Notes: a model not told the origin generated them from the sequence alone. 63,456 nucleotides of DNA, filler included, from Lenisia limosa (GCA_001655205.1; 17 parts of 17 records of this genome joined end to end with filler, not necessarily neighbours in it), one strand, 5' to 3'. Shown: positions 27,867 through 63,387, counted from the first letter of the whole stretch. Numbers and translations are program-made.

Positions 27867-27976
27867 CTGGGGGTGGGGAGTAAATTTGGAAAATTTACGA
27901 AACAGTAAAAAAAAAACCAAAATCAACTCAGTTGGCTGACAGCACACGAGGGTTGAGAACAACAAAACAAACAAAG
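27867..27976 (-). mobile_element. Family D element ending at an acceptor
   Basis: Minus strand ...GTTGATTTTGG..GTAAATTTTCCAAATTTACTCCCCACCCCCAG|GCTCAGCAG. Confidence 0.8.
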
Positions 27977-29014
27977 NNNNNNNNNNNNNNNNNNNNNNNN
28001 NNNNNNNNNNNNNNNNNNNNTTAATTAATTAANNNNNNNNNNNNNNNNNNNNNNNNNNNNNNNNNNNNNNNNNNNNGGTGCATGGATGTTGGAATGTGTG
28101 AAGAGTGCACGGAGGTAATTGTGGGAAACCAGTGGGAAATCAAGGGGACGGTATGTTTCTCCTTTTTCGTAAACATTTATGTTCACAAGGAACGGGTCAT
28201 ATTCATCAACGGTGAACAGAAAAAAAATTGGACAAAAAGGAAAAGAACTGAACTGAGAATTTTTCCCCGCCAAAATTTTTATTTTTTAAAATCGATTGAT
28301 TTTTGCATTCTTGCTCAAAAATTTACAAAATAATGAAAAATTGAGCCGCTTTTGATGACAAACAATCAAAACTGTCGGAGTTTATCAAAAGCGTCGGGGT
28401 TTCTGCGCCTGAGCATATAGTCGTAGCTCCGGACATCATTCAAAATCTCTGGACACATCAAAACTCCCGGACAGCTTGAATTCTCCCTAAAATTTGACTT
28501 GAACATTTTTCTCTCAAAATTCACCATTACATAGTCAAAGCAAGGGGGAATCCATAACCAATTACTCCGAGGGGTACAATATTTTGTTTCTTAGCACTAA
28601 AAGAGGGATAGGTTTAGAAAAAAATCCCGTGAAAAGGCAAAAGCGGCCACCCCCGGGAGACCAAATTCACGGATTTTTGACACTTACTCAAATTGAAAAA
28701 AAGTTGGGGAACATTAAGAGGTCATTTTCTCTATATAAGCCTGGATGGGTAAACCCGATAAAACCCGATAATTTTTTTTCCACCCAAATGTCTTAATTTT
28801 TTTTTATTATTCTTCTTTTTCTTTTAATCTCTTATCCTTATTTTAGACAAACCTTCACTTAAACGTATTTTTTGGTAATAAGAAAAAGTAAATACTGTAG
28901 CTCATATGACAAACAAGTTTTTCGAGAAAATTAACAAATCAAAACACGAAAAATATGATTGATAATGAAAACACAGCTTAAATTCAATTGAAAATTCAAA
29001 AATGCATAAGCACA

Positions 29015-29315
29015 TTATTTCTTCCTGGGCTTCTTTTTCGGGGCAGTGGCCTTCTGCTGAGAGTCGAGCTTCTTGGCTTTTGCGATGCAACGTTTCATAT
29101 TGGCAGTGAGCTGCTTGGTGCCATCAAGGCTCTCAAAGATCACCTAATACAGGTTATTTCAAGATAATGAAAATCAGAATTCAAAGAAGACCTACTTTAG
29201 GACCACACATCAGGCCATGGGATGAGTTAATGCGCTGATTCCGAAGAACAGACTCCTTGAAGTCAGATTCATTAGCGATAAGTTCTCCTGGCTTGAGGGA
29301 AACCACAGTTTCACC
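29015..29315 (-). CDS. Hypothetical protein C-terminus with basic tail
   Basis: Two in-phase exons: GETVVSLKPGELIANESDFKESVLRNQRINSSHGLMCGPK | VIFESLDGTKQLTANMKRCIAKAKKLDSQQKATAPKKKPRKK*. Confidence 0.55.
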
Positions 29316-29460
29316 CTAAGTAAATGAGAACAAAAATGACATCTGAATAAACAATGAAAANNNNNNNNNNNNNNNNNNNNNNNNNNNNNNNNNNNNNNNN
29401 NNNNTTAATTAATTAANNNNNNNNNNNNNNNNNNNNNNNNNNNNNNNNNNNNNNNNNNNN

Positions 29461-29551
29461 TGTTGTTATCAACCCTCGTGTGTTGTTAGCCAACAGAGTT
29501 GATTTGACCTTTTTTGTTTCATACATTTCCAATTTTACCCCCCCCCCCCAG
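29461..29551 (+). mobile_element. Family D element ending at an acceptor
   Basis: TCAACCCTCGTGTGTTGTTAGCCAACAGAGTTGATTTG..ATTTCCAATTTTACCCCCCCCCCCCAG|AGAGCC. Confidence 0.85.
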
Positions 29552-30212
29552 AGAGCCGACCACGTGATACGCATTTTTCTGTTCTCACGTCTTGCCGGGT
29601 TCTTCCTCACGGCTTTTGGCCTGTTACTGGAAGAGTACTTCTTTAGTGGACTTGTGGGGGGGTATCCTTTTACTTTTCTTCGGAAAGAAAATATTTCTTT
29701 TTATTAAAAACTAAATTAGAAATCAAATATAAAATAAACTTTAGGGAAACAACCTGGAACCTTATTATTCTTGTCTGGAATAACCAAGTGAAATACCAAT
29801 ACAATGCATTTTTATTGGATTATCGACAAGTCAATTTTGTCTTTTCTGATTCCTGTAGGCCGTGCTCTTGACTCTTTGGTACACTTCTAACCAAATGGGC
29901 TTTCTTATTATTTGCTTTCTGTGGGGGGAGGGGGGGATATCATTCTATTTGGCAAAATTTGAGAAACAATATTATATTTGTACCATATGCATACTAATGC
30001 TTCAAGGAACTCCTTTTTACTTTGACAAAATTATTCACCTAACCACCCCCAGGTATTTTATTCTGCCATACATCGTCGTTGTGGTCCCCTACCTATTCCC
30101 CTGGAGTCCAACAGTTCTGTACATCCCAGCGGTTCTGCTTCTTTCCTTCACCCCCTTGCAAGTTGGATTGGTTCTGATTACAATAACACTTTCAAAACTG
30201 ATTGCGGTTTGA
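29552..30212 (+). CDS. Multi-pass membrane protein C-terminus
   Basis: Exons RADHVIRIFLFSRLAGFFLTAFGLLLEEYFFSGL (29552-29653), AVLLTLWYTSNQMGFLIICF and YFILPYIVVV.. are hydrophobic. Confidence 0.55.
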
Positions 30213-31249
30213 TTGTCACGGATATCCGAAAATAAACTTTCGGTGACGTCATAGTTTTACTACTTTTTTCGAGAATTTAACTAAATTTGGTCATTATGAT
30301 AATCATAATTGTTGTTCTCTTATCTCAATAATACTTTCTTTTAATATATTAAATCTAAATCACGCAAGTTACGCTCGTCTACAATTCTTTTTGTCCTTCG
30401 ACCGAGCCAGGTTCTCCAACCGCAACCTGCTTTAAGCTGAATTGTCCTTCTTTTCTGTCTCAGAACCAAGTTTAGCTCAACCAGCTTTAACTCCTCCAGG
30501 GAGTTATGCCGATGTTTATTGGCACGATTCTGATCCTCCTTGTTGCCCACTTTGTGGTCTTCACGCTTCCCGAGTCTATCATGTCGTTTCCGTCTCATGT
30601 GGCACACTAGTGGGGGGTATTCCAACGGTCCGAAAAAACTGTCAAAATATCGATATTTATCGAGGATTTATCGTGAATTTCATATTGTGGGACCGTAGTG
30701 AAGCCTTGGTTACAAACTGATAAAACTAGAGCCCAAAAACGGCTTGTCTAAAAATGTGGTGGCTCTTTAAAAACACAATTGTAGTTGCAAAAATTAACCT
30801 TTTATTTTGTAATTTTGTTCATAAAAATACCACTTTTATCACTAGTTATTACCACCCCCTTTTTGCATGACCATAAAACAGACTGTTGGATGACTGGAGG
30901 AAAGGGGTAGTAGTAGTGTATGTAATGCTTCATCAAAGACTGGACCAATATTAGGATTCTTTTTAATTGCTATTTTTTGGATCATGAGCTGTGGTCGACT
31001 TCTGTTTTTTTTCTCTATTTCTATTGCGGCTTTTTTTTTCTTTCTGCTATTTATTCTTTTCTCTCTCTCTCTCTCCCTAAATTAACTCCTCCAGTGAGGC
31101 CTTTAACGTCCTCTTCGACCTGGCCTCCTTTGGTGCGGGCCTGTTCGCTGCCTTCATCTTCAGTAGCAGATATGTGAGAGGGTCCTCGATTTTCAAATAT
31201 CTTCGTAGATTTCCCGTGGTAGTGAATTCTCACATTAATTATTATATAT

Positions 31250-31330
31250 TACAGTGACCGGGATAAGTCTTGACCGATTTTCCTAGGGAAATTATTAGCA
31301 AATCGGTCAAGACTTATCCCGGTCACTGTA
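31250..31330. mobile_element. Family B MITE, perfect 29-bp TIRs
   Basis: TA|CAGTGACCGGGATAAGTCTTGACCGATTT...AAATCGGTCAAGACTTATCCCGGTCACTG|TA. Other copies at ~5815-5934, 7259-7345, 21479-21560, 23186-23264, 25113-25192, 25374-25499, 27373-27453 and 62942-63023. Confidence 0.92.
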
Positions 31331-31459
31331 TATTCTCTTGCACTATCTCAACAAAATATGGAATAATATTATATTGGTCGAAGAGTTCTAGCTAAAATGA
31401 GCATAATTTTTCCAAATATTGTCAAAATATGATACAAGAAAATATCAAGCTTATTTGAC

Positions 31460-32240
31460 TCTCACCGCCGTAGAGCACGGGGCTTGAAAGAGAGTTACAG
31501 CCGTCTTTTAGGGAGTATATCTTGCATTGGATCTACCCATGGACTGAGGCAAGTAAGGCGGTTTCTCTCTAGTTACAGGCTTTTTTCTGTTTTATTCATT
31601 TTTAGGAATAGTATTTTCCACTTAACCCTTCTCCCCAGCAATGGTTGATTCCGAAGGCAACCCCACTACTCCGAAATTCTCAGAGGAGAAGTATGTGCAC
31701 ATGCAGACCGAACTTCCCAACTCCCTTGGGTGGGATTTGGATGGACAGTTCAACTGGTCTTGACTGGTATAATATGGAGACCTCTCATTTTCCTGGGGCT
31801 CTCCAATTTGTTGTATTCACTGCCTCCTTTTTTGAGAGCAAATAATAAATGTGCAAATACAATACTTGGGATGATACTATTAATTAATTAATACAATATT
31901 AATTCACCCAATCATTTGCCTGGCAACTATGTTCACACGGCAAATCATCATACTTCAGCACTGCTCTGATTGGAACGTTCCGCCTTGCCGTCACCACCAT
32001 TTCAAGCACCATATCCGTGGGTGTGGCTTTTAAGCGACTGGCCTGGGCTCTTTCTTGTTGTTGTTAGCCAACATAGTTGATTTCGGGCTTTTTTGTTTTG
32101 TTTGATAAATATTCCTTTTTCACCCCCTAGGAGGCCCTGAGAACCGGCCAGCCAGGCACACCGGAGACACCACCAACACCACCCCAGAAACAGAGCCCTC
32201 AGCCCCCTGAGACTAGTCGAGAAGAACCAGTGCGAGGGGG
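31460..32240 (+). CDS. Hypothetical multi-exon protein (partial)
   Basis: Exon TALIGTFRLAVTTISSTIS joins EALRTGQPGTPETHQHHPRNR in phase 0 across intron 32017-32130. Confidence 0.45.
32030..32130 (+). mobile_element. Family D element forming most of a 114-nt intron
   Basis: GTGGGTGTGGCTTTT-AAGCGACTGGCCTGGG...TTTTTCACCCCCTAG|GAG. Confidence 0.8.
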
Positions 32241-34046
32241 GTGTTTTAGTATTATTATTATTTTNNNNNNNNNNNNNNNNNNNNNNNNNNNNNNNNNNNN
32301 NNNNNNNNTTAATTAATTAANNNNNNNNNNNNNNNNNNNNNNNNNNNNNNNNNNNNNNNNNNNNGTTATTGATCTGGTGGTTAACCAATTTTATGATTTT
32401 GCAATACTTTTGACTGAAAAATCCGGGTTTGATTCGGAAAATGAAAAAGCGTTCGCGTTCATGTGAGTGTTCGCGTTCATGTATGGTCACCTATATATGA
32501 TATAGAATAACAAGAAGTAATTGATGATCACAAAGGCATTGCTCAAGTGTTACTCAAGAAAAATGACCTAAAGTTTATCTAATAGAATATTTAAAAAACC
32601 AAGTAATTCTGAGAATATTGTACTGTAAGAAGAAAAGAAATCTGTTTAAACATGGAAACTGAAAATAATAAAATAAAATGGAATGGACCCATCTAAATAA
32701 AGGTGTTTCCGCAAACCTGGCAATTTTGGATCTTGAGCAGTTGTGGCTTTACTTTCTAAACAGTGATGAAATATATAGTAATCACAATGATACCTGTATA
32801 AGCAGAGATACGCAAATATAGGATGAATTAGTAAAACTACTTTCCAATATCGCTAATATGCGTGAAGATATGGGCAGTTTTGGCCCGATGCTCAGTTCAG
32901 TTATCTTCTCTGTGTGCATATCTCTCAAGATTTTATTTAAATGTATTTTCTGGCTATTATTATCATTATGAAAAAAAATCTACTTGAAGCCCACTTCCGC
33001 AATTTCGATAAACTCCTGCTGTTTCAGCTTGCAGGACTGAACAACAGAAATCAAAGGAAACTAGAGGGTTAAGAGGGAATAGTCAATCGTTATGTTTGAT
33101 CGCATGCGCGATTGTTACTAACACAACCACACCCACCAATGAAACATCAGAGATAAGAACACCCCTAAAATATACTAACAATACATATATTGCATAATAC
33201 ACCAGAAAAAAGCCCCCTCCCAACATCAATAAATTTAGGGATATCGAAGGCTGTTTGATTGAGTAGAGCGGCAAGATCAATTTTGCTTATTTTGCCTGTC
33301 ACAAACATCTCCAAAACATCCTCCAGAGCCAAGCCATTGAAAAGCTAAATAGTTTAGAGCGAATACATAATTATTAAACAGGCCTAATTATATATATATA
33401 TATAAATGATGGGGCGCAGAAATCATGTCCGAAATGCCGAATTCATGTCCAAAATTAAATTTCCCAGGTGGAACCCTCCAAACAGCTTTAAACATGATAA
33501 CAGTTCACTTTAAGGTCCTACTTGAGGTTATTTTTTGTTTTGTGTGTTTCTCCGAGCGTTTTGTTTTGAAAGAAAAATCATCGATTTTGGCCGATAAGTG
33601 AAAATTGAAAACTGAGAGAGTGATCGATTTTGGGCAAAGTTTCATCAAGGAGGTGTTTAAATAACACATTAAAGTGTTTTGGGTCGAGAGAAGATCACTT
33701 CAAGCAAGAAAGAGCCCCAAAGAGAAAGTTGAAAATTGTCACCTTGATCTCGAGATCATCAAAATTTTCAACTTGATCTCGAGATCATCAAATTTGAAAT
33801 ACCTTCTTTTTTTTTGAAAATCTCCTCTTTTCAACTCTTAATTGTTTAGTATTTAAGTTATAATTACAAAACTTCCATAGCAATAAGTTCCTTGTTATTT
33901 CTCAGTAAACATTGGCCTCTTGGGCCTCTCCTTGCTATTTCTGAACTGTCGCTATAAAACTACGTTAATTGTCGCTCAAGAAGAGAGAAAACTCTCTTTC
34001 CTTGGTTTGTTTTCACCGTTTCAAGATTTGGGTAACGTTTTTTTAG

Positions 34047-34382
34047 TTGAGGAACTTAATGGGAAGAGGTAGAGCTGAATCCTTTTTTGGTTTCTATGAA
34101 GATGGATGGAAGGTTCTTAATGCTGAAGAAAAGAACAAAATCTTGAACCAAGCCTGCACTGCGTTCTTGAGCAGAGACATTAAAAAATGGCCTGAGATTG
34201 CTTCTTTCTACAGGATGGATTCAGCTAGCGACTACTCTTTTGAAATTCCTAAGTCCACATTCAAAGTCGCGCTGAACAGGCCCCTTGAAGAAAGAATCCA
34301 GGCTGCTAAGGAAAGAGCTGGTGATGGTCAAAGAAGTGTGGGTATTAACCCACTTCCACAAGACACCTGCTTACCATTTTAA
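34047..34382 (+). CDS. Hypothetical protein exon
   Basis: Open 111-codon stretch with protein-like composition (..KILNQACTAFLSRDIKKWPEIASFYRMD..). No family recognised. Confidence 0.4.
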   Translation: MRNLMGRGRAESFFGFYEDGWKVLNAEEKNKILNQACTAFLSRDIKKWPEIASFYRMDSASDYSFEIPKSTFKVALNRPLEERIQAAKERAGDGQRSVGINPLPQDTCLPF

Positions 34383-34720
34383 TTCCTTTCATTAGAACTT
34401 TAGTGGTACTAATGGCAGCTTTATCAACCCCCTTTGCTCAACCCAATCAACTTCACATTGAATGTAATTGTTTTGACTTTTTTAGCATGGAATGAAACCA
34501 CATATTCCAACTCTCNNNNNNNNNNNNNNNNNNNNNNNNNNNNNNNNNNNNNNNNNNNNTTAATTAATTAANNNNNNNNNNNNNNNNNNNNNNNNNNNNN
34601 NNNNNNNNNNNNNNNAACAAACAAAGCCCAAAATCAACTATGTTGGTGAAATGATGTATTCGGGGATATGAAAGTTGCCGGGTAGGTTTGGATTTTTGAT
34701 TTGAAGAGAAGTGTTGTTAC

Positions 34721-36279
34721 CTGGTTCTCGAGTCTTGCAATCTGATCGTGGCCTTGCTGCACAGCATGCTGCTTGGACTTGACCTCAGCTTGCCGCGACT
34801 CCAGAACTGAAATGTCAATAATCCCAATCAGCCAGATGCCAAGCGGCCTTTCTTCAAGGACATAAATAAGACTAAAAGCATGCAGAAATAAGCAAGACTA
34901 AAAGGGTATTATAAAAGTAAAACAATACTCGGTCAAACCCGACTCAGCTTTACCCCCATACTAGCCTTATGCTCCTTAAGTTCCTTCTCGAGACGCTCTT
35001 TGCGGCGCTGGGCTCTATCACCGTCGGCCTTCATCGTCGATACCGTGTCTGGAGAGGAGGGGTTATCGCCTGGCCACCTCAAGACTGTTTTCAAAATTTT
35101 TACCGATACAATAACCAGATGAAATGGACTGACCATATTACGCTACAACATCTTTTCCCTCCTCCTCTCTCACTCACTCCCTCTAGCACACACCTTTCAA
35201 CTCATTAAGCTCGCTTTCAAGCCTCTGAGCGTTATCCTCCTGGGCCCGAGCCTTGTCTTGCGATTCTGACACCTCTGATCTGAGAGCCACAATTTGTGAC
35301 AACTGCCGGTCGCGCTCTGAAACATTTAGTAAACATCAGAAATAGTTATATTCCAAGCTCGAATTAATACTCCCCTTACCTTTAGTGAGTTCCTCCTTGA
35401 CCTTCAGTAGCTCATTTACCGAGTGTTCTTGCCCCACTATAAGGGTTAGAAAGGGGTAATTCACCAGAGAGTAACATTGCCACCTAAGCCCGCCAACCAG
35501 TAAGACCAGCACCTTGCTCAACGAGTTTCGAAAGGTTGGCAATTTCAACTTTCAACTGTTGAATAGTCTCCTTTGCTCCTATAAATAGAGTAAAAAAAAT
35601 TACTATTATCCATACTTCCAATGATTCAAAACAAAAATGTATGTCCGAAAAGAGAACAACCCATACGCCCCAAAACAGCAAAAGTAAAGACTAACACCCA
35701 ACAAACGGGATTCCTTCTCATGTGAGGCATCAACCATCTTCCATGCCTTTTCAATTTCTTTCTTAAGGCTGTTGATGGTGTTTTGATCTTCTTGGTTGAA
35801 TTTCAAAGCGGTCTGTACTTTGGCTGCATTGGATACGATCTCTTGGTTAAGATCACGGCATTTCTGAAAAGTGATGAGGTGTGCCTTTAGGTTTTAAATT
35901 CATGCTGAAAAAAAAAACAACCTGAGGGGGGATGGCGAGGAAGGTCGTTAGAAATGAGACTAAGCTACAGAGGCCAGCAAACCTTCATAAGACGTTTTTC
36001 GCTTTCGTGGGCCTTTTTAAGGGCTCTATGAAGTTTTTCATACTCAACACGGAACCTTTCAAGGGACTTATCTCCAACGAGCTCCGCTAAAACCTGAAGA
36101 TATGATTTACTGGGCTGTGTGTTCCCAGTCTTACCTCTTGAAAATCACGTTCAAGAGCTTCAAAGGCATTTTGGGAGAGGGCTTCCCTCTCCATTTCCTT
36201 TTTAGCTGCCGCATATTGCGGATCGTCGTCCTGAAAGGGTCAATTAGAGATGTTCCTAATTAAACTATGTCATTACCAT
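34721..36279 (-). CDS. CFAP58: Cilia- and flagella-associated protein 58, N-terminal part
   Basis: MDDDPQ..NAFEALERDFQEVLAELVGDKSLERFRVEYEKLHRALKKAHESEKRLMKKCRDLNQEIVSNAAKVQTALKFNQEDQNTINSLKKEIEKAWKMVDASHEKE..AKETIQQLKVEIANLSKLVEQGAGL closely follows the CFAP58 N-terminus. Confidence 0.92.
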
Positions 36280-36560
36280 GCTTGAAACACGGATTCAACT
36301 CCAAAGAAGGTTCACCAAAATATGCAACTGATTTAATGACTTCTAACAATCAATATATGAATATAATACAAATATACACTCTTATCTTGATCCCTAACAC
36401 GCTGAACACGCGCTTGACGACCAAGATCACTCAGATCCTCAAAAACAACAAAAGCGAAACACGAAAAGCGAAAAACACTCTGTGGTTGTCACTTTCGCTT
36501 ATTTTGTATTAATTGTTAGCAGTGTGATTAAAATAGGTGGATTAAATCCACGGTTGAAAC

Positions 36561-38370
36561 ATGTATGGTGGAATTGGTCTTCTTACTGCGCGTGGTACTG
36601 GCACAAATGGTTAGCCTACATTGCATCACTAGTGTTTAAGAATAAAATAAACGTAAAACTGACTAATTACCATTAGGATACGTACAGCGAAATCTCTCGT
36701 CTCTCCGACCAAAGCAACACATTATTGATGTTGAAGCAGAAGGTATGCCGACTTTTACTTGCCTTATATTTTTATATGCACCAGTGTTTATTTAGTTCTC
36801 TATATGTTCCATTTGACCTTGGACAGCTGTAAAAGCAGAAAGGGATGCCACACGCAAAAAGGACATTCGAATTCTGGAGTTTGACAAAAGGAGGCAAGTA
36901 GCTGTGCAGATTGAGAGAATCAGGGAAGAGCTGGAGGAAGAAGGGTAGGTTTTCAGTTTTTAGCACAGCCATGTATTTACTTTTGTTTATTTGAGAGAGA
37001 GAGAGAGAGAAAGGGAGAGAGTGTGTGTGTTTGCACACGTCACAACATTATGGAATACCTCTAATCCTTGGTTGATTTTTTAGGTTTGAGGAAATTGAGA
37101 CTGAATTGAAGATCCGTTTGGAGCAGGCATTGGAGGAAATGAAGGAGCCAGATGAACAAGAATTGTTTGGATGGGTTATCATTGTCTTTCAAGTGATAAA
37201 AAACACAGTTATCGGGTCCTGCTTTACATTGATACTTCATTTTTTGGAAGTGTATTGTATATATTTCACAAAATAAATTGAATCCAAATTTATGTACGCT
37301 GGAGTGATTGGTTGCTAAGCGACTGGCCTGGGCTTTGTTTNNNNNNNNNNNNNNNNNNNNNNNNNNNNNNNNNNNNNNNNNNNNNNNNNNNNNNNNNNNN
37401 NNNNNNNNNNNNNNNNNNNNNNNNNNNNNNNNNNNNNNNNNNNNNNNNNNNNNNNNNNNNNNNNNNNNNNNNNNNNNNNNNNNNNAGCTCCACATATTAA
37501 ATAACAATGAACAACAAAATAAGCTAAAATAAATAAGGTAGCTTCACGCTCATGCTGAAGAAGCATAATTATATAGGGAGGATGAGGTGACCGCTTTCCA
37601 GGACAAATTATCGGTTGCGTTTGATAAGCCAATTGTTTGAGGGGTTATCCGTCAGATTCTTTTATCGAATAGATAGTACTATTAAGGTAAGTGGCCGTTA
37701 TTGGAATGGGTAGACCAGCTTTTAAAAGTTATATTAAGTCTGCAAATCGGCTTTGTGAAATCAATGGATCCCCCCCCCCAGCTTGTGTCTTTATGTCTCA
37801 CACTTTTTAATATCAATTATGGTGCATAATAATATTGTGGGCATGATACAACCGGGTTTTTATTTTTATTTCCAACTCCACTACCTCAGTAACAGTCTCA
37901 ATCTTTTTTTTCAAAATTCAAGGCTGTTTACAGTTTAGAGGAAGAATCGACTATCACCAAGTCCTGAGCCGGAGGAAAAAAGAGCAAGATTAAAAGCGTA
38001 AGCAACCAGTCTGCATTAGAAGAGCCTTTTTGTGTGCTTTTTTTAAAGGATTTTTTTTTCGATCTGCCCCTGATATTCAAAACATCCAGTGAAAGGCGTT
38101 CCAAACGAAGACAACGAAGCAGAAGTCGCAGTCCGAAGCGACGAGAGAGGCGACAGCGCGATGAGCGAACATGTGGGCAACATTTTTCTATAAGAAGAGG
38201 TCCAACTTTTCATTGTGTTCGTGCTTGAAATGTTTCCAGTTGTTCCTTGTTTTTGGTGTTTTTTTACTTTATTTTCTTTTGTATTGCCCGTCTCTCCCAT
38301 CCACGTGGTTTTATTGTACAGCATCAAAGCGAGACGAGTACGTTCCGAGTTTAAGGAAAGACAGATTTTG
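36561..38370 (+). CDS. CWC21: Pre-mRNA splicing factor CWC21/SRRM2 (cwf21 domain)
   Basis: [29 protein letters not shown] (exons 36561-36609 and 36677-), ILEFDKRRQVAVQIERIREELEEEG, and an RS-rich tail (RSRSRSPKRRERR). Confidence 0.9.
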
Positions 38371-38679
38371 ATAGAGTATTTCTTTTTTGGTGTTTCAATG
38401 TTGTCTTAAGTTTTAGAATCTATTTATCTAAGTCCATCTTGAAGTCTTGGAACAAAATAGTTGTGGATTATATTGTGATACACTGAGAACACAACTTGAC
38501 TACACTCGGCAAGGCATAAAAAAAAAATAAAAAAAACCCACATGGGGGGTCAAAACAAGAATGAACAGTAGCACAAGCTCATACTTTTAAAAGTCAAATC
38601 ATAACCCACTCTTAACAAATCGGCACTAAACCATAGAATACATCGAAGAAAGCAGAATGAAACAAAAAAGGTGCGGCAG

Positions 38680-39335
38680 TTACTGTGGCATGGTCATGAC
38701 AAGAGTCACATTGTCTCCCTTCAAGAGTATTCTCCCTGGAATTGGGTCAATTTGTCAACAATTTCTTTTCTTTTCATTATTACTAACTAAACTTACAGCA
38801 AAATATTTGAGACAAATGAACCAGTAATGAGTAAGAAAAGTGCATGAAAAAAAAAAAAAAAAAAAGNNNNNNNNNNNNNNNNNNNNNNNNNNNNNNNNNN
38901 NNNNNNNNNNNNNNNNNNNNNNNNNNNNNNNNNNNNNNNNNNNNNNNNNNNNNNNNNNNNNNNNNNNNNNNNNNNNNNNNNNNNNNNNNNNNNNNNTGGT
39001 GTTCACTTCCTCAGCGTCGTCAAGAACGATGTTCATGTAATCGTCAAAACCCTAATTTAGTAAAATAAACACAACACAGCTGAAAACAAACGATAACAAC
39101 ACCTTCCATGCGAAGATCAGGCTGGTCGACAAGCATAATCTGAACACGAGCCTTCTAAATGCTGTGAGAACTCTTCAAAATACTTAAGCCATTGAATAAA
39201 CCCCCTTTCCCCACAAACGTTTCTCAAAAAGCGGAACATAAGCACCTACAAGAAAAAAGTAAGTTAATTGTTCTTTTTACAAATAATAAGACATACCACT
39301 GGCTGAGTCATAACCTTCTTGACCTTAGTTGACAT
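38680..39335 (-). CDS. SNRPE: Small nuclear ribonucleoprotein SmE
   Basis: MSTKVKKVMTQP..ARVQIMLVDQPDLRMEG..GFDDYMNIVLDDAEEVN..GRILLKGDNVTLVMTMPQ*; Sm1 and Sm2 motifs present. Confidence 0.93.
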
Positions 39336-52358: not shown

Positions 52359-53594
52359 ATTTCGAGAGTTTAGACTACAATTATAATCTAAAATAAGCTC
52401 TCTCAACGAAATATACAACCTGCTTTTAGTATTTCGGTTGTTTTTTTCGGAAATGAAATTTTAAAGCGGAACCCGGGTCTCCCTGAGTCTATAAAAAGTA
52501 TATATCAAAAATATTCCAATCCTCTATGAGATAAGATTAGATCTTTGCCGGATCAATCTATACCTCAAAAACCAATTCCAGGGAAGTTAGAACAGTAACT
52601 CGTGCAGTTTGTTAAACCAGCTCCAACTCCTCCCCTTTCCTTTCTTCAGCAATGGGAGTCATTGAATTCCCCAGTGATATGCCTCCGGAGTCGCTGAGTC
52701 GCCGATCATCAGACAGCAGTGCCTCTTCAGGTTGGTGAATATCTAACTGTTGGTGCAGATCTAACGGTTCTCATACCTGTTCCATACCATGAAATTATTC
52801 AGAGAGTGCTGGAATGGATAGGTTTTTTGGTTTGTTCTGAGTTAACCTCCGGTTAATTTTCGCTAACTCTTGGGTTCTACTTGTAACTGTTTTGTTTTTC
52901 AGTTTACTTTCACTCTTCTTGTCTTGGTAATGATGGCGACAAAGTGGCGTATCTGCAATTGAGTTTTTTTTCTTCTATGAATTGCTCCTATTCTAATGTT
53001 TCTATGTCACATTGGGCATCCTCCTGCAATCTTCTATCATCACCCTCCCCGAGTGATGGGATGCGGTTCTGCAGAAGCAACTGGCCTGGGCTTTGTGTTT
53101 TTGTTGTTCTCAACCCTCTTGTGTTGTCATCTAACGGAGCCGATTTTGGGCTTTTTTGTGTGTTTAACAGATTTTCCAATTCAACCGCATAATAAAGTAG
53201 TTCAAGATTTGTACGTTTATACACTGCATACTCAGTAAGTAACTCTGTGAGACAAACCAAGTTTTTGGCGGTTGCCTTTTCCAAACTTTCCAACTGGCAC
53301 TAACAATCTTCATCAAATTTCCTTTACTTTCTTACATGATTTGTACGTTTACGCCAACTTCATCCAAATCTATCTAACGATTTGTACGTTTAAGCCATTT
53401 CCTTTTCTGTCTAATCGCGCAGGTCCCGGATGCGGCTACAAATCTCGCGATTTCAGGCCAGCTAAAGGTAGAGGGGGGGGGGGGNNNNNNNNNNNNNNNN
53501 NNNNNNNNNNNNNNNNNNNNNNNNNNNNTTAATTAATTAANNNNNNNNNNNNNNNNNNNNNNNNNNNNNNNNNNNNNNNNNNNNCCCCCCCCCC

Positions 53595-55130
53595 AGTACC
53601 AATTGTGTTAGCGGTTTAATCTCCTCTTGGTGCAGGAGGAACTCCTCTTCGATCGTCAAAAACTTCTAAAACGGATAAATTGGAGTAAAATTGGACAAGT
53701 TATGAAATAAAAATCTTGATTATAGTAGGGTCTCTATTGAAACTTGAAACTGAGGTGACTACACACACCTTTATTATATCCAGCTTTTGCATTCGAAGTC
53801 TACACTTCTGTGCGGGAGCCACTGGAAGGTAAAACAAAAGACTTTTTTTGTTCAAGAGAAATAATTTATTACATTAGAAATCTAGGAAAACAAACTGGGA
53901 TTCCATAAAGAAATTACCTTAAAAGAGGGGGGAGATATTTGATGACGAATGGATAGTTCAAGGTTGGGGGACGGGGTGAAATGAAAAATTGAAAAAGGAA
54001 ATTGTTATAAAACAAAAAAGGGAAAAAATCAACCTTGTTGACTGAAAACAGCCCCCCATACCTTTTGGCAGTTTCTGGAGAGTGTCATGTCCCCCTGTTC
54101 TCTTATGTTTCCTGGTAGAGTAAAAACAGGTTGGGGGGGGGGGGGNNNNNNNNNNNNNNNNNNNNNNNNNNNNNNNNNNNNNNNNNNNNNNNNNNNNNNN
54201 NNNNNNNNNNNNNNNNNNNNNNNNNNNNNNNNNNNNNNNNNNNNNNNNNNNNNNNNNNNNNNNNNNNNNNNNNNNNNNNNNNNNNNNNNNNNNNGACCCA
54301 AGTCGAGCTTGCCCATTCAACTACCCAAGAATAATCAGCTCAAGGTAAAATATTTTGGTTGACAGTCCCTCCATAGCTCCTTCAAAGAACCAAGAAGAAT
54401 AAACGCAAGTTTAAAATCCTTTGATCAGCAGTCCCTTCGTGACTAATCAAAAATATGCCTTGTTTTTTTTTGTTTTTTTTGACGTTTCACATTCCAAGTG
54501 GAGCTGGACCTCCATCCCTAACCCCCAAAAGACCCCGCAAACCTCGTGGACGGTCCAAGGTCCTTGTTTTCTTGGCTTTCCTGAAAGGATAAAATTTTTG
54601 GACAAGAAGATTTGGAACAGAAACACAAAAGATAAACATAATCAAAAGACCAGGCTTCCAAAGTTATAAACAGACTCGAAAAGATAACGTCTTATACTAT
54701 ATTGTAAACCTTGTTTTATTTCTACATATTGTAAACTCCAACCACCAAGATACTCCATTTCTTTTGTAATTAAAAACGGAAGAAAGGGATTAATAAAGCT
54801 CAAAAAAATGAGCGAATTGAAGTCTTGCGAGAAACAAGCAACAAAAGAAAGGCCAACAGAAAAACATTGGAATGCAGGTACGGCTGCAAGAGGAAACAAG
54901 ATCAGACTGCTAGTTTTTCAATGAAAGAAACAAAGAGAGGAAGGTTTTTAGAAGGCAGCGTTGAAAGCTCTTACAATGTTTTACAACAAAAAAGGCAAGA
55001 TATCCCCAAAGGAGACGATGAGAAGAGCAGACAAAAGGCAATTTGCCTGATCCAGCCCCACCTTTTCTTTATCGTCTTTCTGTTGATCAGGAGGGGCCTG
55101 ACCATTCGCACGACTCTGTCCCTGGCCCAT
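53595..55130 (-). CDS. RPT2: 26S proteasome AAA-ATPase Rpt2 (PSMC1)-like N-terminus
   Basis: MGQGQSRANGQAPPDQQKDDKEK (55062-55130), ..LGPSTR.., HDTLQKLPKVAPAQKCRLRMQKLDIIKKFLTIEEEFLLHQEEIKPL is colinear with the Rpt2 N-terminus. Confidence 0.8.
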
Positions 55131-57054
55131 TTTTCCCCTTTAGTCCACTCAGTTCAACAATTCAAACAGGCTGAGAAGGTGCTTCGAGAATATAACCTTG
55201 TACACACGTTTTTACTATTGTTACAAAGATATAAAGATGGAAATAGGGAATTTTCCAATGATTTTTTGAGTTTTCAGACTTTCTTTTTCTAGGGTGAATA
55301 TGCCCCCAGATTATTGATGCATCAAAGTTCAAAGTTGTGGCAGAGTTTTGGTTTGCTTCCCAATCACTATTGTATCACATATTATATTTAAGATCGATTT
55401 AAAAGAATAAAAAGTAACCACTATCGCTTGAGAGCTTTCCGTGCGAAGATCAGACCATCGGCAGCGACTTGTTAGCATGAGTAACGTACCCTCGCGGATA
55501 GGGTTCAAATGTGACCCTCCAAAGAAAGTGGGATGGGCTGTTGGGTTGATTATTTGTGTAATGCTTAGGTGAACTATGAGGTGGCCTTATTTCCTGTCAG
55601 TACTAGCTGTTTTTGCTCATTTTTTGGGCTGAACAAAATATTACTATACTAGAATCCAATATCTCATATATGCATGATGGAGTGGACGGCTTCGATTAGA
55701 CACCCCCTCCCCCCCTTGGTTTTCATTCTCACATATTCCCTGAATAATCACTCATTTCTACATATTCCTTGGAATAGCATCCCTTCTTTACAAGCTTGTT
55801 TTTTTGTTTTTTTTCTCTTAACTTTATCTTTATGATCCTAGTTTCAATAGAGACTTTCTTCATGATCCCTAATAGAGACTTTCCTGCAAAACGAACTTAT
55901 TTTACAATAACACTCGAGCTTATTTTGCACAGAAGTACGACATATTGTGTTACCATGACATGTGCATTTATTTTTGTGTACCAGTTGGCTACAAAGCAGA
56001 TGTGCTGCAGAGCGACTGGCCTGGGCTTTGTTTTGTTTTGTTGTTATCAGAGTTGATTTTTGGCTTCCCCGCCCAAAAAAATTCCATTGTTTTTTTTTTG
56101 ATTTGGGGCCTTTTTTTTTTGTTTGAGAGATTTTCCCCTTTACACACCACCCCCTCGTTTTTTTTTATTTCATAAATTTTCTAATTTTACCCCTCAAACA
56201 GCAACAAAAAAAAAATCTCCATCGAAATTTCCATCGTTTAACTCTCGCTCCCACCCCCAGTATAAATATGTGGTGTTTTTGAAAATTTCCCATTTTACTC
56301 CTCTCCTAGTACACACTAGCAAATGACACACTTCGTCCTTCAGTGTACCTCATACCGGATGTCAAGACCCCCCTGAGGATTTCTATGGCAAATCTGTTTG
56401 GGGGGGGGGGNNNNNNNNNNNNNNNNNNNNNNNNNNNNNNNNNNNNNNNNNNNNNNNNNNNNNNNNNNNNNATTTCCTGTCGTCTTTTTAAAAGCATACT
56501 CCATTTCAAATGTTGAAGGCAGAAGGTGGGGCTTCGGTTCAGTTGAAAAAAAGACTGAATTTCTCGATAAATCGTCGAAAACTATCGAGATTTTACCGAA
56601 ATTTTTCGAACCGAAGTGAAGTCCTACATATGCATTTTCGTCCTTTTAAAAACATATTCTAATACAAATGTTGAAGGAAGGAGGGGAAGAAGGATTTCGT
56701 AGTCTATTTTCACCATACCCCCCCTTTCACAGTTTTAAAATCAAATGATCAAAAATAGTTTAGCCCTCCTTTTTTTTTTAAAAAAAACCAAATTCATCAA
56801 TAACTGTGTATCACCCCCATACCCTCTATANNNNNNNNNNNNNNNNNNNNNNNNNNNNNNNNNNNNNNNNNNNNNNNNNNNNNNNNNNNNNNNNNNNNNN
56901 NNNNNNNNNNNNNNNNNNNNNNNNNNNNNNNNGGCCTGGCCTGGCCTGGCCTTTGTTTGTTTTGTTGTTTTCAATCGTGTGTTGTTAGCCAACAGAGGTG
57001 ATTTTGGTCTCTTTTTTTTCATGTAGATATATATTTCCAACTCTACTCCTCCAG

Positions 57055-57350
57055 AATCTTCGATACTGGATCTTTGCGTTAGAATTCGAATAATTAAATG
57101 TGTGGGGATAATGAAACATATTATGTGGGGGTTACACAGATTATTCGGTTCGTGATTAGCCACTATTCTTCATCGAAATTTCCATCTTTTTATTCCACCC
57201 AGAATTTCTTTTTTGTTTCATAAATTTTCCAATTTTACTCCTCTTAGAATCCCTCCCAAAGATGAGAAGTACCAAAAGATGGCAATTCGGCTTGCTTACG
57301 GCCTGACTTCCGATACCAATTCCATGGGACATGAATCTGCGTATAATCAG
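57055..57350 (+). CDS. Hypothetical protein exons
   Basis: Exon 57055-57077 (NLRYWIF) joins 57248-57350 (A-IPPKDEKYQKMAIRLAYGLTSDTNSMGHESAYNQ) in phase 2. Both acceptors are family D ends. Confidence 0.5.
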
Positions 57351-57671
57351 GTTGGCGTGGCTCGTGAGTCGGCGTATAATCAATTTAATTCATTGCGGAG
57401 GAGGGGGTGGAGTAAAACGAAGCAAATTTCGAGACTGTATCTACGATGAATTCGAATAGTTGAATGTGTGGGGATAATGAGACATATTAGGTGTATATAA
57501 TTAATTGGGGGTATCTGAGTTTTTTTTTTTCTCTTTCTTTTATAGTTTTCCAATATTTACCCCCCCCCCCCNNNNNNNNNNNNNNNNNNNNNNNNNNNNN
57601 NNNNNNNNNNNNNNNTTAATTAATTAANNNNNNNNNNNNNNNNNNNNNNNNNNNNNNNNNNNNNNNNNNNN

Positions 57672-59214
57672 AGGTGGAGGCCATGGTATGGAGTAAAGGA
57701 TATCACCAGAGCCACGCTCAGTGCTATATCTCCCGTCCCTCTCCTGTAATTAGTCACACCTCCAACATACCCGTCACACCCCCTCCCCACCTGTTAATAG
57801 TTTCTGTTGCTAGACCCATGTCGGGTGCTGACGGCATCACATCATCAAGATAGAACTGGCATCTCTATATTGTGTTAGACACAGATTACTTCTTAAACTG
57901 AAATACTAAATATAGTCATGCAATTATCTCTCCAGTTTTCTTTCTTCTATCACCCACCAGTCTTCTTTCTTCATGATCCCGAAGGCCCAAGGCGGCCATT
58001 TTGCGAGACATCCAGGACTCCGGATCCTCTCCCTCAAGTCGCAAGTTGAAGCGTGACACCTTCTTTTCCTTCTGAATATTGTTATTATGTAAGTATGATA
58101 TGTAAATTAATCTTCATATATGACTTAATATATACAATACTATGATGGAAGACTGCAAAATATGATTGGTTATTATATAGCTAATATAATATAGTATATT
58201 AATGATCAAATTGCAGTGTGTACCTTCTTCTCTTTCTGAACATTGACATTGTTGTTACAGAAAATGGATAAACTTTGAGATTGCATTTCTCATACAGCAT
58301 TTCTATATCATATATTGGAACTATACCATTCTTTGGATCACTTACACTGAAATTACCCGCGGAGAAGTACGGTTTCAACCCCCACACTTGGAAATGTTGT
58401 ATTACATGATATTAGAATGCTTCCCGTCCCTGGCACTATCACCTGAGAATGATTCCATCGAATGACGAAAAGGTCCTGGTCGGCAACGTAGCCTAAGACA
58501 GTGCACGGTCTCCACTGTTTCGAGCCATCGCCAAGGACCCACTGACTATCGCCTTTCACTACGTCACATTTCTAGGGGGGGGGGGGGGGGNNNNNNNNNN
58601 NNNNNNNNNNNNNNNNNNNNNNNNNNNNNNNNNNNNNNNNNNNNNNNNNNNNNNNNNNNNNNNNNNNNNNNNNNNNNNNNNNNNNNNNNNNNNNNNNNNN
58701 NNNNNNNNNNNNNNNNNNNNNNNNNNNNNNNNNNNNNNNNNNNNNNNNNNNNNNNNAGGCGGAAAGCGGGAAGAAAAATGGCATCCCTTGCGGGTAAAAT
58801 TGGAGAATTTATGCAATATAAAAGCCCAAAATCAACTCTGTTGGGGAGAGAAGGTAAAAATCGAAAATTGGTTTAAAGGATAAACAATTGCACAGAAGAT
58901 TTCAAAGCTGTGTGTGTTTGGGGGTGGGTGTATGTGATCCCAAATAAAAGCACATCTGTGCAGGGTTCAATTCAACCCATGGAACCCAAAGTAGGAAGGA
59001 GCATTCAAAAGGGAAGGATAGAAAGACAGCCAAGTTGAGCGGAAGGATAGAAAGACAGCCTAGTTTAGCGGAAGGATACAAAGACAGAGAGTCTAGTTTA
59101 TAAGAATGAAATGCGAAAAAAGGAACTGAAGGATGCCCACCTTCGTCCGGTTCAGAACGGGGCCCTTCGTCGTCGTCAATTGATAGCGGTGAGATGGTCT
59201 CAACTAATTCTAAA
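57672..59214 (-). CDS. Axonemal dynein heavy chain (DNAH1-like) N-terminal fragment
   Basis: GMPFFFPLSA.., QWRPCTVLGYVADQDLFVIRW, KKVSRFNLRLEGEDPESWMSRKMAALGLR..E and RCQFYLDDVMP resemble the DNAH1-type N-terminal region. No motor domain in the window. Confidence 0.5.
58787..58846 (-). mobile_element. Family D 3' part ending at an acceptor
   Basis: CAACAGAGTTGATTTTGGGCTTTTATATTGCATAAATTCTCCAATTTTACCCGCAAG|GGATGCCA; in phase with the upstream exon (intron 58787-59140). Confidence 0.75.
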
Positions 59215-59468
59215 GTGTAATACTGGGTCGTGGAGATAAAATGAAAACCTGTACATGGTGTTGATTTGAAGAACCTTCGAAGTAACAAACCCAAAATATC
59301 ATAAGTATATAACACAAATCAGAAGTAACGGAACATAATATCAGAAGTAATATCATATTCAAACACTCCCAATACCCCACCACTTACCAGAGGGAGTTGT
59401 TTGTTTCTGTAATTTTGAAGGGCTTAAGGGAGGTGAGGGAGTCCTGTAAACGTAAATGTCAAAACAGT

Positions 59469-59528
59469 ATATCATATCATATCATATCATAGCATATCAT
59501 ATCATATCATATCATAGCATATCATATC
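59469..59528. repeat. (ATCAT)n pentanucleotide microsatellite
   Basis: ATATCATATCATATCATATCATAGCAT... running to the scaffold end. Confidence 0.9.
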
Positions 59529-59749
59529 NNNNNNNNNNNNNNNNNNNNNNNNNNNNNNNNNNNNNNNNNNNNTTAATTAATTAANNNNNNNNNNNNNNNN
59601 NNNNNNNNNNNNNNNNNNNNNNNNNNNNTCCCCCCCCCCCCAGTGCTGCCCCAGTGCCCCCCTTTCATTTCTATTCTTAGTATTTCAAAGTTTATCATTA
59701 GGTATTCGTTTTTAAATCGGAATCTGAGGAAAGCGGGCTTTACCTTCAG

Positions 59750-62176
59750 TCTACCTTGATGATATTCATTACCTCCGAGCTCCGAGACTGACTCCAACGT
59801 CTGAAGAGTTTCACTTGGAACACATGATGGTCCAACGTCCCTTCCAGGTTTTAGAAGGCCTGGAAATGGAACATGATAGAAACCTACCGCGTACAGCCTT
59901 CCCCAACCAGGTTGACGTTGCGGCAGTTGATTTAACGATCCCCCCCTTGCCTCCCCTGCCTGCTGATACCGACAACTTTTTACTAGATGACCCACTGGCC
60001 TTGCCTGAGTTACCAAATGAATTATCTTTGTTACCACTACCGAATTTTGTAACGCTGGATGATTGTGAAGGTATGCGTTTTTTCACTTGGGCGTTTGATG
60101 AGTTGGAATTTGAGCTGCTAAAACCAAAGAAATGTTAGATTATCTCTGTAGCAGTAATTAATGTTTATCATATCTAAGTATCGGGTATTTAACAGTGTTA
60201 TTTGTATGATTGTAACCTTCCAGAACGGCACCCACATGTCCCTTCGTCAGCTTCGCCGTCACCACCGCCATTTCGAAACGGTTCGAGCGACATGCTTTTT
60301 GCTGTTCATTTCCTTTCTTCTGTTTCAGACCACTCTGAATTATTTTTTAAAAAAACATCATCTATCCTTTTAGAATTTTGTTGATGGTGAAGTATTTGCC
60401 TTTCATTGTCTTCAGATTTTTTGCCTCTACGTCTTCCAACTTCTTTGGAACCATCCCCCCCGCCACCCCCTGTGACCGGACCTAATGCGGCTCTTCTTGC
60501 AAAAGTGGGTAAGTGCTCTTCTTGCTAAAGTAGGAGTAAGTCTAATTTATTGTCTCTCCTCTTATTTTGCCGTTTTCGAGGGTGTTGCAACTGCGCCCTC
60601 CTAAATCATATTATATTAAGTTGTTATCCCTCACCCTATTCAGCCCCTTGAATTTGTCCCATTAGTCCCCCTCAGAAGGCCTGGCGATGACAACCTGGCG
60701 TTTCTTTCGGACTCAGGTTGGTTTATTATTGTGTCCAAACATCTGATTCTCTCTATTATCATGATTTTGCTGTCATGAATCATTTGTCTAGATGAGGAGG
60801 TTGTGGAAATGGCTAGACAAACAATCCCCTCTCAGCCTGATGTTATCCTTTTGGGTGGGTCGCCTGTATTTTTAACAATTGGAATCACTGACGTATCATA
60901 CCACCCGAAGATGTGTTTCCAACTTTTTATTCATTGAATGAGTTATTTTAACTTTTCATATGCATAATGATATTTAGACTCAGACTCTGACTGCAGTGAG
61001 CCTCGGTCCCCAATTCGGCGACCTATGGAGAGGCCAATGCGGCAACGTGGGGGTTGGGTAATAATGTAGAAAGGGTGATATTAAAAGCCTCATTGAAAGT
61101 GCCATCTTAAATTCATGGATTCCTTATCGTTTCTAAATGTCAAATAGAAGAGATTTTTAAGGGTTTTTTTTTACTTTTTAGGCAATCCTGTGATAGATCT
61201 CAGTGATGAAGAAGAGGTAAGTTGGGAGTTTTTTTAATAAAATATTTTTGGGAGTTAATTAACAACGCGGTGAAGGTTTTGTTGTTTGTGACATGTATAG
61301 CCCCCACCGCAACAAGAAGTAATAGATTTGGACAGTCTTGCTGATATACCTTCCCGCAACCCACCGCGTAAGCATAGAGAATTCTCCACTTTTTGGGGGG
61401 TTGTGGTTCAGTATATGTTTCGGCCGAGAAAATAATCTCGACTCAACATGATAACAATTCGGTCACCACGTAGCACTGATTCCATTCGTCCGACATGACC
61501 AAGTACGAAGGCGAGGCCTTGGCTTAGCGGCAATGCGGCGTGAATGTGAGTGGTATTGGAACGATAAACATTGTTTTAGCTTGATTTATTCTTTTAGTGG
61601 CACAAAGAGGAATGTCTGTTGGACTTCTTCAACAAATGTAAGGCAAAAAACAATTGGTCTTGATCTCACTCTGTAGGGTGCTACGAGGAGGTGATATTGG
61701 TCAAAGAGGAGGACCAAGACAGGTTCTTCAAAATGTTGGGGGGTTTACATTTGAAGAACTACATTTACATAATATCAAATGTATGAAATGTGTCTACGGA
61801 AGTTATTTTTGTGAAAAAAGAAAACTCACTCTCTAGCCGGCCGCAAACGCACCAAATGTGAGATACGACACAGATTTTCCCTGGCCCATGGCGGTTGAGA
61901 AGGTATTGTGATATAGCCAGTTGATCATATCATAATATGAGTTTTATGTGTAGTAAGACTGGAGAAATGAATATTGCCATGTTCCAATCACCTTTTTAGA
62001 GTTTCAGTGATAAACTGACTGCTGCTGGTACCCGGAATATCTTTGGTCTAATGCCTACGTTTAAGTTGAAAGTGAGACTGGAGAATTGACCCAACCGTTT
62101 TGTTTTTGTTGACCTTTCTTAGACAGCTTTACCATCGACAGTGGAAACATGTTCTATATGTATGGACTCCGTCAAA
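59750..62176 (+). CDS. Hypothetical multi-exon protein
   Basis: Large Pro/Leu/Asp-rich exon (~59750-60070) plus small GT-AG exons (..PAANAPNVRYDTDFPWPMAVEK, SFSDKLTAAGTRNIF). No family recognised. Confidence 0.45.
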
Positions 62177-62390
62177 NNNNNNNNNNNNNNNNNNNNNNNN
62201 NNNNNNNNNNNNNNNNNNNNTTAATTAATTAANNNNNNNNNNNNNNNNNNNNNNNNNNNNNNNNNNNNNNNNNNNNTGTTGTTATCAGCCCTTGTGTGCT
62301 GGCAGCCAACAGAGTTGATTTTGGCCTTTTTTTGTTTTCCATTTTTAATTGGAACTTTTTTGTTTCATAAATTCCAATTTACCTCCTTAG

Positions 62391-63387
62391 GCCACCCAAC
62401 TCTCAGCCCACCTCCCCACCTCCAAATCCAGCATCTCCGACCTGAGCGAATCGACCGAGCTGTACCAATTCCTGAGCCGTGCCCAGCAGTTTATGCACAA
62501 CGTTGTAACGTCCGCTGATTGTTCGAGTCAAGCTGTGGAGGTTTGAGGCATTGAAAAAGTTAAAATGTGACAGCCTCGAATGTTTCTAGCAAGCAGAGTT
62601 AGCTTTTGCTCCTTTGTTGGTTTCATAAATTTTCCAATTTTACCCCCCCCCCCCTTCCCAGNNNNNNNNNNNNNNNNNNNNNNNNNNNNNNNNNNNNNNN
62701 NNNNNNNNNNNNNNNNNNNNNNNNNNNNNNNNNNNNNNNNNNNNNNNNNNNNNNNNNNNNCGTTCGCGACTTTGCATTCCGCCTCTACAAGACCCTTGCC
62801 GATGTAGGGGGGGGGGTGCACACAGTCAGTGTCCGTGATAAGTCCTGACACGGATTTAGAACTTTATCTTGAGTGAATCATGTCAGGACTTATTGCGGTC
62901 AGTGACATATGTATATGGTTATTAGTATATTATACACGGTGTACAGTGACCTGGATAAGTCTTAACCGATTTTCTTTGAGAAATCACATAGCGAATTGGT
63001 CAAGACCTATCCTGGTCACTGTACCTAGGGGGTGTGTTAAACATGACGGTTGGGATGCCTCACTTCTCTCACACGTCCTCGAGACAATCCGAGTTAACTA
63101 ACGTGATAATCTTCTTTCACGCTGGAGTGATGGGATGCGGTGCTGCAGAAGCGACTGGCGTTTGTTTTGTTGTTATCGACCCTCGTGTGCGGTCAGCCAA
63201 CAGAGTTGCTTTTGGGCTAAAATTTCCAATTTCGTTCACCCCCCCCCCCCAGAGCTGGCCAACAGTGCGCGAAGCAAGTACGCAATTTGCCGTTGGCCTG
63301 TCGCCCCAGATGTTTATCAACACCAGTCTTGCAAGAGCTCTTTTCCGTGGTGCAGTGGATGCCCAGGCCTATATTGCCAGGCTTGTT
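62391..63387 (+). CDS. Hypothetical protein (partial)
   Basis: Exons ATQLSAHLPTSKSSISDLSESTELYQFLSRAQQFMHN, GCVKHDGWDASLLSHVLETIR (63029-63092) and SWPTVREASTQFAVGLSPQMFINTSLARALFRGAVDAQAYIARLVD (63253-). Confidence 0.6.
63119..63252 (+). mobile_element. Family D element, full length, ending at an acceptor
   Basis: ACGCTGGAGTGATGGGATGCGGTGCTGCAGAAGCGACTGG..TTTCCAATTTCGTTCA-Cn-AG|AGCTGG; fills 134 of the 160 nt of intron 63093-63252. Other copies at ~1247-1280, 14956-15050, 34616-34645(-), 37294-37340, 53050-53185, 55999-56201, 56933-57054, 57205-57247, 62277-62390 and 62585-62661. Confidence 0.88.

Follow-up and report, generated by a model that had tools for sequence, protein, structure and literature searches.

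Does a short dispersed repeat whose copies end where introns end create introns, or does it renew the ends of introns that already exist? The question is raised by a stretch of 63,456 nucleotides (nt) from Lenisia limosa (GCA_001655205.1), hereafter the window, which consists of 17 small scaffolds joined by spacers and holds 4,407 N, and in which an initial annotation had described a dispersed repeat, family D, lying at the splice acceptors of unrelated genes. With a probability of roughly 0.55, we favour the reading that D is a mobile element, likely young and non-autonomous, whose insertions fall at the 3' ends of introns already present and give these a fresh branch-point and pyrimidine-rich end, the intron still being spliced. 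The host is an intron-rich eukaryote: a casein kinase 1 (CK1) exon is 100% identical to a transcriptome-derived protein, and residues 1–297 of the CK1 protein, once placed on the window, define seven GT-AG introns of 72–223 nt.

Gene models were built manually with a boundary-fitting script, giving 109 introns, 91 of them with a visible acceptor; 27 of the 109 had boundaries that were flagged and moved to the nearest GT/AG. Transcript data support 11 of the listed introns plus two D-terminal ones, the remainder being based on reading frame and partly on homology. Pfam labelled few of the host genes, and among transcript-derived proteins none was found for a D-bearing gene, where searches gave a genomic read-through and five unrelated weak matches, the sole match being CK1, which is without D. 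Statements that reach beyond the window come from a single study, whose DNA run (X1) and polyA RNA run (X2), one of each, were searched as contigs, with X1 perhaps being the window's own source.

As a repeat, D is well defined. A profile built on 12 window copies returns 21 matches at E<=0.5, within 17 introns on 12 scaffolds, and 16 of these score above the maximum of 7.9 bits reached in 20 block-shuffled windows, which bears out the dispersed family of about 135 nt described initially. The median identity among nine long copies is 84% (36 pairs), and the matches occupy 2.9% of the readable window bases. Summed depth in X1 is 97,000–277,000 on D versus 15–27 on unique flanks, a sum that gives an order of magnitude only and is not a copy number; of the 8,337 DNA contigs matching scaffold 62277–63456 (all repeats together), 3,484 are at least 95% alike. 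The genome likely contains thousands of copies, which are probably young and belong to a non-autonomous element. The 5' end reads GTACGC, a donor-like sequence intact at 37294 and 26722 and altered at 7508, 14953 and 63119; the consensus of 126 DNA contigs running out of D at 63119 closes with the same letters. The element thereby reaches further 5' than in the initial annotation. At the other end D is constant up to a TTYAC, followed by a C-rich spacer of 5–16 nt with variable sequence and, in terminal copies, by AG. Many pieces in the window retain only the 3' part, yet in X1 the 5' part is covered at least as deeply as the 3' part.

No terminal inverted repeat (TIR) was found in four copies (p=0.06–0.8), as the initial annotation had stated, with families A and E reaching p<0.001 in the same test, and a sub-terminal inverted repeat was not significant. 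The internal hairpin described earlier is not significant, being no more stable than shuffled sequences (z +0.95 to -1.39 in 10 copies, +1.0 to -1.83 in six cores). The check for target-site duplications (TSDs) that had been proposed revealed none at 63119, 14953 and 53049, the other flanks being hidden, and a possible 3-nt CAG duplication at 26722, where the element interior lies inside a gap. Similarity between the D end and the family-E terminus has p=0.005–0.02, in low-complexity sequence. Pattern scans of metagenome, prokaryote and viral collections gave 0 loci, and Rfam and tRNA searches of D gave no match.

The most uniform property of D is its orientation, which, as initially claimed, is always sense to the host gene (21 of 21 matches, 17 of 17 introns, p=1.5e-5), whereas the likewise TIR-less family C is sense in only 7 of 13 copies (D versus C, Fisher p=0.003). 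Position is biased as well: 9 of the 15 copies with a visible acceptor end no more than 10 nt from it, the corresponding figure for families A, B and C together being 1 of 32 (p=3e-5), and 8 of 14 do so without the weakest D piece (p=9e-5), six matches that run into gaps or scaffold ends being left out of this count. All eight AGs named in the initial annotation exist, each following a D end, on five scaffolds and not on six.

Could D be a host-maintained intronic RNA or splicing enhancer, similar to a small nucleolar RNA, as its sense-only, intronic occurrence might suggest? The chance seems very slight, given the absence of Rfam and tRNA matches, a fold no better than that of shuffles and copies that are truncated or in tandem; moreover, the summed RNA depth on D is about 50 versus 277,000 in DNA, contig depth being a poor measure. 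An ordinary, untargeted transposon, of which selection spares those copies that are harmless at acceptors or lack an AG, would explain why YAG is absent behind six of the nine internal D ends and, introns being short, why near the AG only an element bearing a branch motif survives. However, neutral antisense and intergenic copies should then be common, yet antisense copies number 0 of 21 and copies outside listed introns 0 of 21 versus 8 of 48 controls (p=0.095, weak), which makes this explanation quite improbable.

Among the D-terminal AGs crossed by RNA, three of four are used (one of them inferred) and one is skipped. One RNA contig joins 56395 to 57248 in frame across a GT..AG intron of 852 nt, showing use of AG 57247. 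For scaffold 62277–63456, where DNA rows took up the joint table, RNA pieces and depth arithmetic were used instead. One piece of RNA record 15 (197 nt, depth 4.9) lies at 63253–63347, depth is zero over 62837–63116, and the depth bins of 4.41, 0.86 and 2.57, equal to 36, 7 and 21 fortieths of 4.9, place the upstream piece at 62761–62803. The record can be reconstructed, in frame, as 62520–62540, 38 nt in a 99-N gap, 62761–62803 and 63253–63347 (21+38+43+95=197), and in the DNA contig that enters at 62761 that point is preceded by 60 nt, which equals 38+22. AG 63252 is used, with the donor at 62804 and an intron of 449 nt; AG 62661 is probably used as well, if the 38 exon nt lie in the gap. 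At 63253 and 57248 the exon starts directly behind the AG of D. Exons 62391–62516 and 56310–56354 are uncovered in this RNA run, which has no bearing on their use.

RNA contigs lacking D further show that the element is removed by splicing at 62804–63252, 56396–57247 and 54061–53822. The last of these contains a D half and belongs to an Rpt2-like gene (a label based on six weak but uniform PDB matches), four introns of which are shown by RNA at depth 104; its position may match that of a human intron, which would make it ancient, although a literature search turned up no paper on this. Of the four phase-consistent joins of the initial annotation, the predicted one over 32017–32130 is in frame and the predicted one over 59140–58787 is open in one joined frame; for 57078–57247 and 63093–63252 the acceptors are indeed used, but the donors seen in RNA are 56396 and 62804. 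The exon once placed before 57078 (57055–57077) is the start of a family E repeat, and its inclusion breaks the frame. The initial annotation had also allowed that its AGs might go unused in RNA, which is the case for 57054 and not for 57247 and 63252.

Branch-like motifs at the 74 D-free acceptors are concentrated between -9 and -12, with YTRAY present in -25..-7 in 32 of 74, TTYAC in 15 of 74 (2 in the interval upstream) and C-runs of at least 5 in 5 of 74. Each of the 9 D-terminal acceptors contains a TTYAC between -9 and -20 and no YTRAY, so that the TTYAC of D falls in the branch-point slot of the host and is predicted to be used as such. Behind D, 301 DNA contigs leaving the C-run at 62654 have the plurality consensus CAGG, followed by 26 letters of which 15 are G/C (agreement 0.37), a content reached by 0 of 2000 simulated intron flanks and by 18–22% of exon flanks; exon-like sequence behind C-run and AG is common beyond the window. 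In front of D, the 126 DNA contigs leaving its 5' end read a T-run, C-rich letters and then GT, with no AG (agreement 0.43), a composition that resembles an intron end and not an exon.

These flanks bear directly on the alternative that D is a true TIR-less introner, that is, that it enters exons as a complete GT...AG intron, the long introns being later expansions or nested insertions. Its start, GTACG, fits the host donor pattern (GTnnG, with G at +5 in 78 of 100 donors) and its end combines branch motif, C-run and AG; it makes up 99 of the 114 nt of intron 32017–32130, and at 26722 it starts directly after an acceptor-like CAG. Sense-only occurrence and the lack of TIRs are traits of introner elements (IEs) and introner-like elements (ILEs) (PMC4540971), and Micromonas has both nested IEs and remnants of IEs within canonical introns (PMC3879977). 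On the other hand, none of the five intact 5' ends coincides with a host donor, the element's own GT being kept 26–315 nt downstream of it, the introns shown by RNA measure 449 and 852 nt, and the upstream consensus is T/C-rich, with no AG before GT. The initial suggestion that D creates introns is thus not sustained and we regard it as unlikely, although it may apply to a minority of copies (32017–32130; 26722), with 32017–32130 being, from its sequence, the best local candidate for a D-born intron. The introns are not identical with D, as they are longer, carry miniature inverted-repeat transposable elements (MITEs) upstream of it and keep its own GT inside; insertion near the AG of an existing intron would be the simplest reading.

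The other half of the initial interpretation, namely that D donates or replaces the branch-polypyrimidine-acceptor end, is supported by the sense bias, the terminal enrichment, the use of AGs in RNA and the TTYAC in the branch slot. That D supplies only the 3' site calls for caution: the element is donor-like at its 5' end as well, and in many cases the host may have provided the AG, as the spacer varies from 5 to 16 nt and YAG is absent behind 6 of 9 internal ends. From this pattern we infer that D is mobile and targeted. Its likely landing place would be the few nucleotides separating the branch point from the AG, or the position just downstream of a D copy already present, and the new branch site is predicted to come from D's own U-rich tract and terminal TTYAC.

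How could such an element find its target? DNA contigs contain head-to-tail tandems in which the end of one D is joined to the start of another (62654 to 63128 or 63160; 62643 to 63119 with GT between). A circular or converting D copy that recombines at the DNA level with T-rich TTTAC-C-run stretches, which are mostly acceptors, D ends and E termini, would account for these tandems as well as for orientation, variable spacer, T/C-rich upstream flank and co-clustering with E. The same motif, however, stands antisense at donor G-runs (2626, 45755), yet no antisense D lies behind any readable one, in a comparison covering 12 of 100 donors, several of them at gap edges; we hold this route to be improbable. 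With selection alone and DNA homology both failing on antisense D, a transcript-linked route remains. An RNA-based insertion, tied to transcription or splicing, would be favoured because sense-only insertion without TIR or clear TSD is explained by no other route, and taken on its own we give it somewhat less than an even chance. Spliced or circular intron RNA could be the intermediate, which would fit the donor-like 5' end of D and the head-to-tail joints. Two mechanisms from the literature would fit: reverse splicing into the displaced strand of an R-loop, which fixes orientation (PMC4540971), and a post-splicing reaction that joins a trimmed lariat tail to a 5' splice site, giving tail|GT joints similar to those of the D tandems, although with tails of at least 15–20 nt, longer than the shortest D joint here (PMC10996645). 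A more far-reaching version, which we put forward only tentatively, is that D is a spliceosome-coupled element homing to the branch-to-AG tail and has replaced the 3' signals of about a tenth of introns.

It is nevertheless important to stress what weighs against insertion of D at the ends of existing introns. AG 57054 is skipped in the sole RNA contig that crosses it, and the contig joining 56395 to 57248 is a 119-nt cycle of depth 7, possibly a single molecule; the RNA consists of single low-depth contigs from one run, and two of the three used sites come from depth arithmetic, with no listed joint. Six of the 15 positioned copies end 67–236 nt upstream of the acceptor (three of these six share introns that also end in a D piece), and the profile contains the C-run, which biases it toward terminal calls. 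Acceptors and host strands are mostly taken from manual models, and a window of small scaffolds broken at repeats may over-represent D. Finally, the plurality consensus in front of D may be compatible with a large minority of whole-intron, exon-flanked copies, intron 32017–32130 is 87% D and one site reads AG|GTACGC, the last two fitting a true introner.

Several known elements invite comparison with D. Antisense Alu elements donate a polypyrimidine tract and an acceptor, as do the U-rich stretch and AG of D; they occur in both orientations, give rise to rare cryptic exons and are not known to be targeted to existing acceptors, whereas D occurs in one orientation and abuts normal coding exons. 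D lacks the TIRs of MITEs and other TIR transposons and the tRNA-, 5S- or 7SL-derived head of short interspersed nuclear elements (no tRNA or Rfam match). Nor does it resemble Helitrons: its ends vary (CCAG, CTAG, TTAG, CAAG), the next base is not T-biased and there is no stable 3' hairpin, while Helitrons have a 3' hairpin before CTRR and insert between A and T (in part PMC12130899).

Like introners, D occurs in many unrelated genes, on the sense strand only, and is spliced from mRNA; it does not show family similarity to both splice boundaries, the nearest case, 32017–32130, being 15 nt short. With the TIR-less introners (Micromonas IE-A/IE-C, fungal ILE; PMC4540971, PMC3879977, 10.1101/2022.06.06.494994) it has in common that it is short, non-coding, repeated and sense-only, has no TIR, shows no clear TSD and carries splice-like signals. 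However, those introners constitute the whole intron, whereas every assessable D copy forms part of a longer intron, with an accumulation at the 3' end. TIR-less introners, too, can be nested or merged, or persist as remnants within older introns; in Micromonas IEs inside older introns are a minority, with 32 cases in conserved introns and 463 remnants (PMC3879977), whereas for D this location is the rule. Introners with TSD and TIR that take one splice site from the element, as D does, are known from Symbiodinium and Chrysochromulina (review PMC11282704), but their second site is the TSD at the other element end, while the donor used with D is several hundred nt upstream of it, and neither a TIR nor a clear TSD was seen. 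The sister stwintrons of Hypoxylaceae are likewise repeated, restricted to the coding strand and nested in intron signals, with acceptor- and branch-interrupting types defined (PMC8469720); they require two consecutive splicing steps and have terminal symmetry, whereas D has no symmetry and no second AG behind it at the RNA-shown sites.

A literature search, with subscription papers and survey supplements outside its scope, found no description of an element like D. The 2022 survey (10.1101/2022.06.06.494994) would miss it, because its criteria demanded that introns be similar at their two ends and left secondary insertions out. While known introners add introns, D would show a splice signal used as a safe landing site, with branch points being renewed genome-wide; if it is indeed coupled to the spliceosome, its transposition would alter the ends of introns and leave the exon-intron structure as it was, and introner surveys would by their design overlook it. 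Sense-only, seemingly TSD-less insertion beside an AG would also offer a testable case for the long-proposed RNA- or spliceosome-based mobility of introns (PMC4540971, PMC10996645). For annotation, D breaks assemblies at acceptors and plants decoy AGs. The copies and the adjoining E pieces are collected in the table.

Table. Copies and pieces of family D, and pieces of family E, in the window.
Position	Strand	Feature	Evidence
63119..63252	+	near full-length D; last 134 nt of intron 62804-63252, with two family-B MITEs inside	86 bits; RNA record 15 and depth bins; in frame
57208..57247	+	D 3' piece at used acceptor of intron 56396-57247	16 bits; RNA joint
56939..57054	+	D with skipped AG 57053-57054, internal in intron 56396-57247	79 bits; spanned by RNA joint
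57055..57202	+	TIR-bearing family E repeat between two D copies	alignment, TIR and frame tests
62572..62661	+	D 3' part to AG 62660-62661, intron donor 62541	55 bits; RNA length arithmetic
62277..62390	+	D from scaffold start to AG 62389-62390, then open exon	65 bits; predicted acceptor
27867..27976	-	D from scaffold end to AG 27867	90 bits; acceptor predicted; frames open after joining
29461..29551	+	D from scaffold start to AG 29551	78 bits; predicted acceptor
32032..32130	+	D within predicted intron 32017-32130	62 bits; in-frame join
58787..58880	-	two tandem D 3' pieces to AG 58787, predicted intron 59140-58787	38 bits (58844-58790); second by alignment only
56004..56309	+	several D pieces clustered with an E right end, up to predicted acceptor 56309	43, 7.9 and 6.5 bits; in frame; terminal piece below shuffle maximum
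7508..7644	+	full-length D, C-run into N gap, exon resumes beyond	109 bits; AG position inside gap
37294..37340	+	5' end of D (GTACGC intact), starting some 130 nt into its intron and cut by a gap	profile and sequence
26615..26722	-	probable D in 84-N gap; GTACGC on one side after acceptor-like CAG and E piece, C-run/AG on the other	sequence only
14953..15050	+	internal D with deletion, 67 nt before predicted acceptor, no C-run	72 bits
53049..53186	+	internal D, 236 nt before predicted acceptor, no C-run/AG	102 bits
53967..54050	-	3' half of D within intron 54061-53822 of Rpt2-like gene (RNA joint), ending 145 nt upstream of acceptor	17 bits
1167..1280	+	tandem of D 3' half and D 5' part, into gap	14 and 6.5 bits
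34616..34648	-	D piece cut by scaffold end	12 bits
57398..57571	+	E left end and interior, then D-like 3' end with C-run at scaffold end	6.7 bits, weak; alignment
24384..24416	+	weak D 3' piece joined to D 5'-region motif, then gap	E=4.9; outside statistics
57398-57515	+	family E piece	alignment
56212-56257	+	family E piece	alignment
26802-26740	-	family E piece	alignment
26236-26150	-	family E piece	alignment

A reading of 26722-26615 as an intron made of a whole D was dropped, its upstream "exon" being family E sequence. Family E itself has a TIR of about 30 bp (p<0.001) and a right end like that of D; its pieces are sense in 4 of 4 orientable cases, and 4 of 5 adjoin D or a D-like end. The TIR-less family C (about 150 nt, both orientations; for instance, 14321-14455, 27221-27069, 31891-31941 and 12314-12359) lies 6, 17, 19, 34 and 99 nt from the acceptor when sense and 78–577 nt when antisense, and ends in a small hairpin followed by C-run AG, which would make it Helitron-like. 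The palindromic MITE families A (about 100 bp, 17 loci, such as 23684-23784) and B (about 83 bp, 16 loci, such as 31250-31331) have ends that are presumably PIF/Harbinger-like and Tc1/mariner-like, respectively.

Further observations concern splicing and individual genes. The branch-to-AG distance is very tight throughout the window (74 acceptors). Runs of 10–13 G stand directly behind 12 of 100 donors (for instance, 46401, 45773, 2643, 62804 and 63391), including that of a transcript-shown 78-nt intron, and many assembly gaps begin at G- or C-runs; a pairing of 5' G-runs with 3' C-runs within introns was rejected (p=0.37). The 119-nt RNA cycle closes from 57325 back to 56355 (pieces 56355–56395 and 57248–57325), not at splice sites, and is either a library artefact or a circular RNA. 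The in-frame 63-nt segment 63030–63092, which has AG/GT borders and adjoins a B MITE on the side of its AG, is absent from the RNA contig that spans it and may be a cassette exon. A 334-codon intron-free frame at 17878–18879 (+) with a bacterial cadherin-like domain is a large exon, a transfer or a contaminant, and in a papain-family protease gene the last exon piece (2434–2493 and 3497–3556) is duplicated just upstream, beside a C element.

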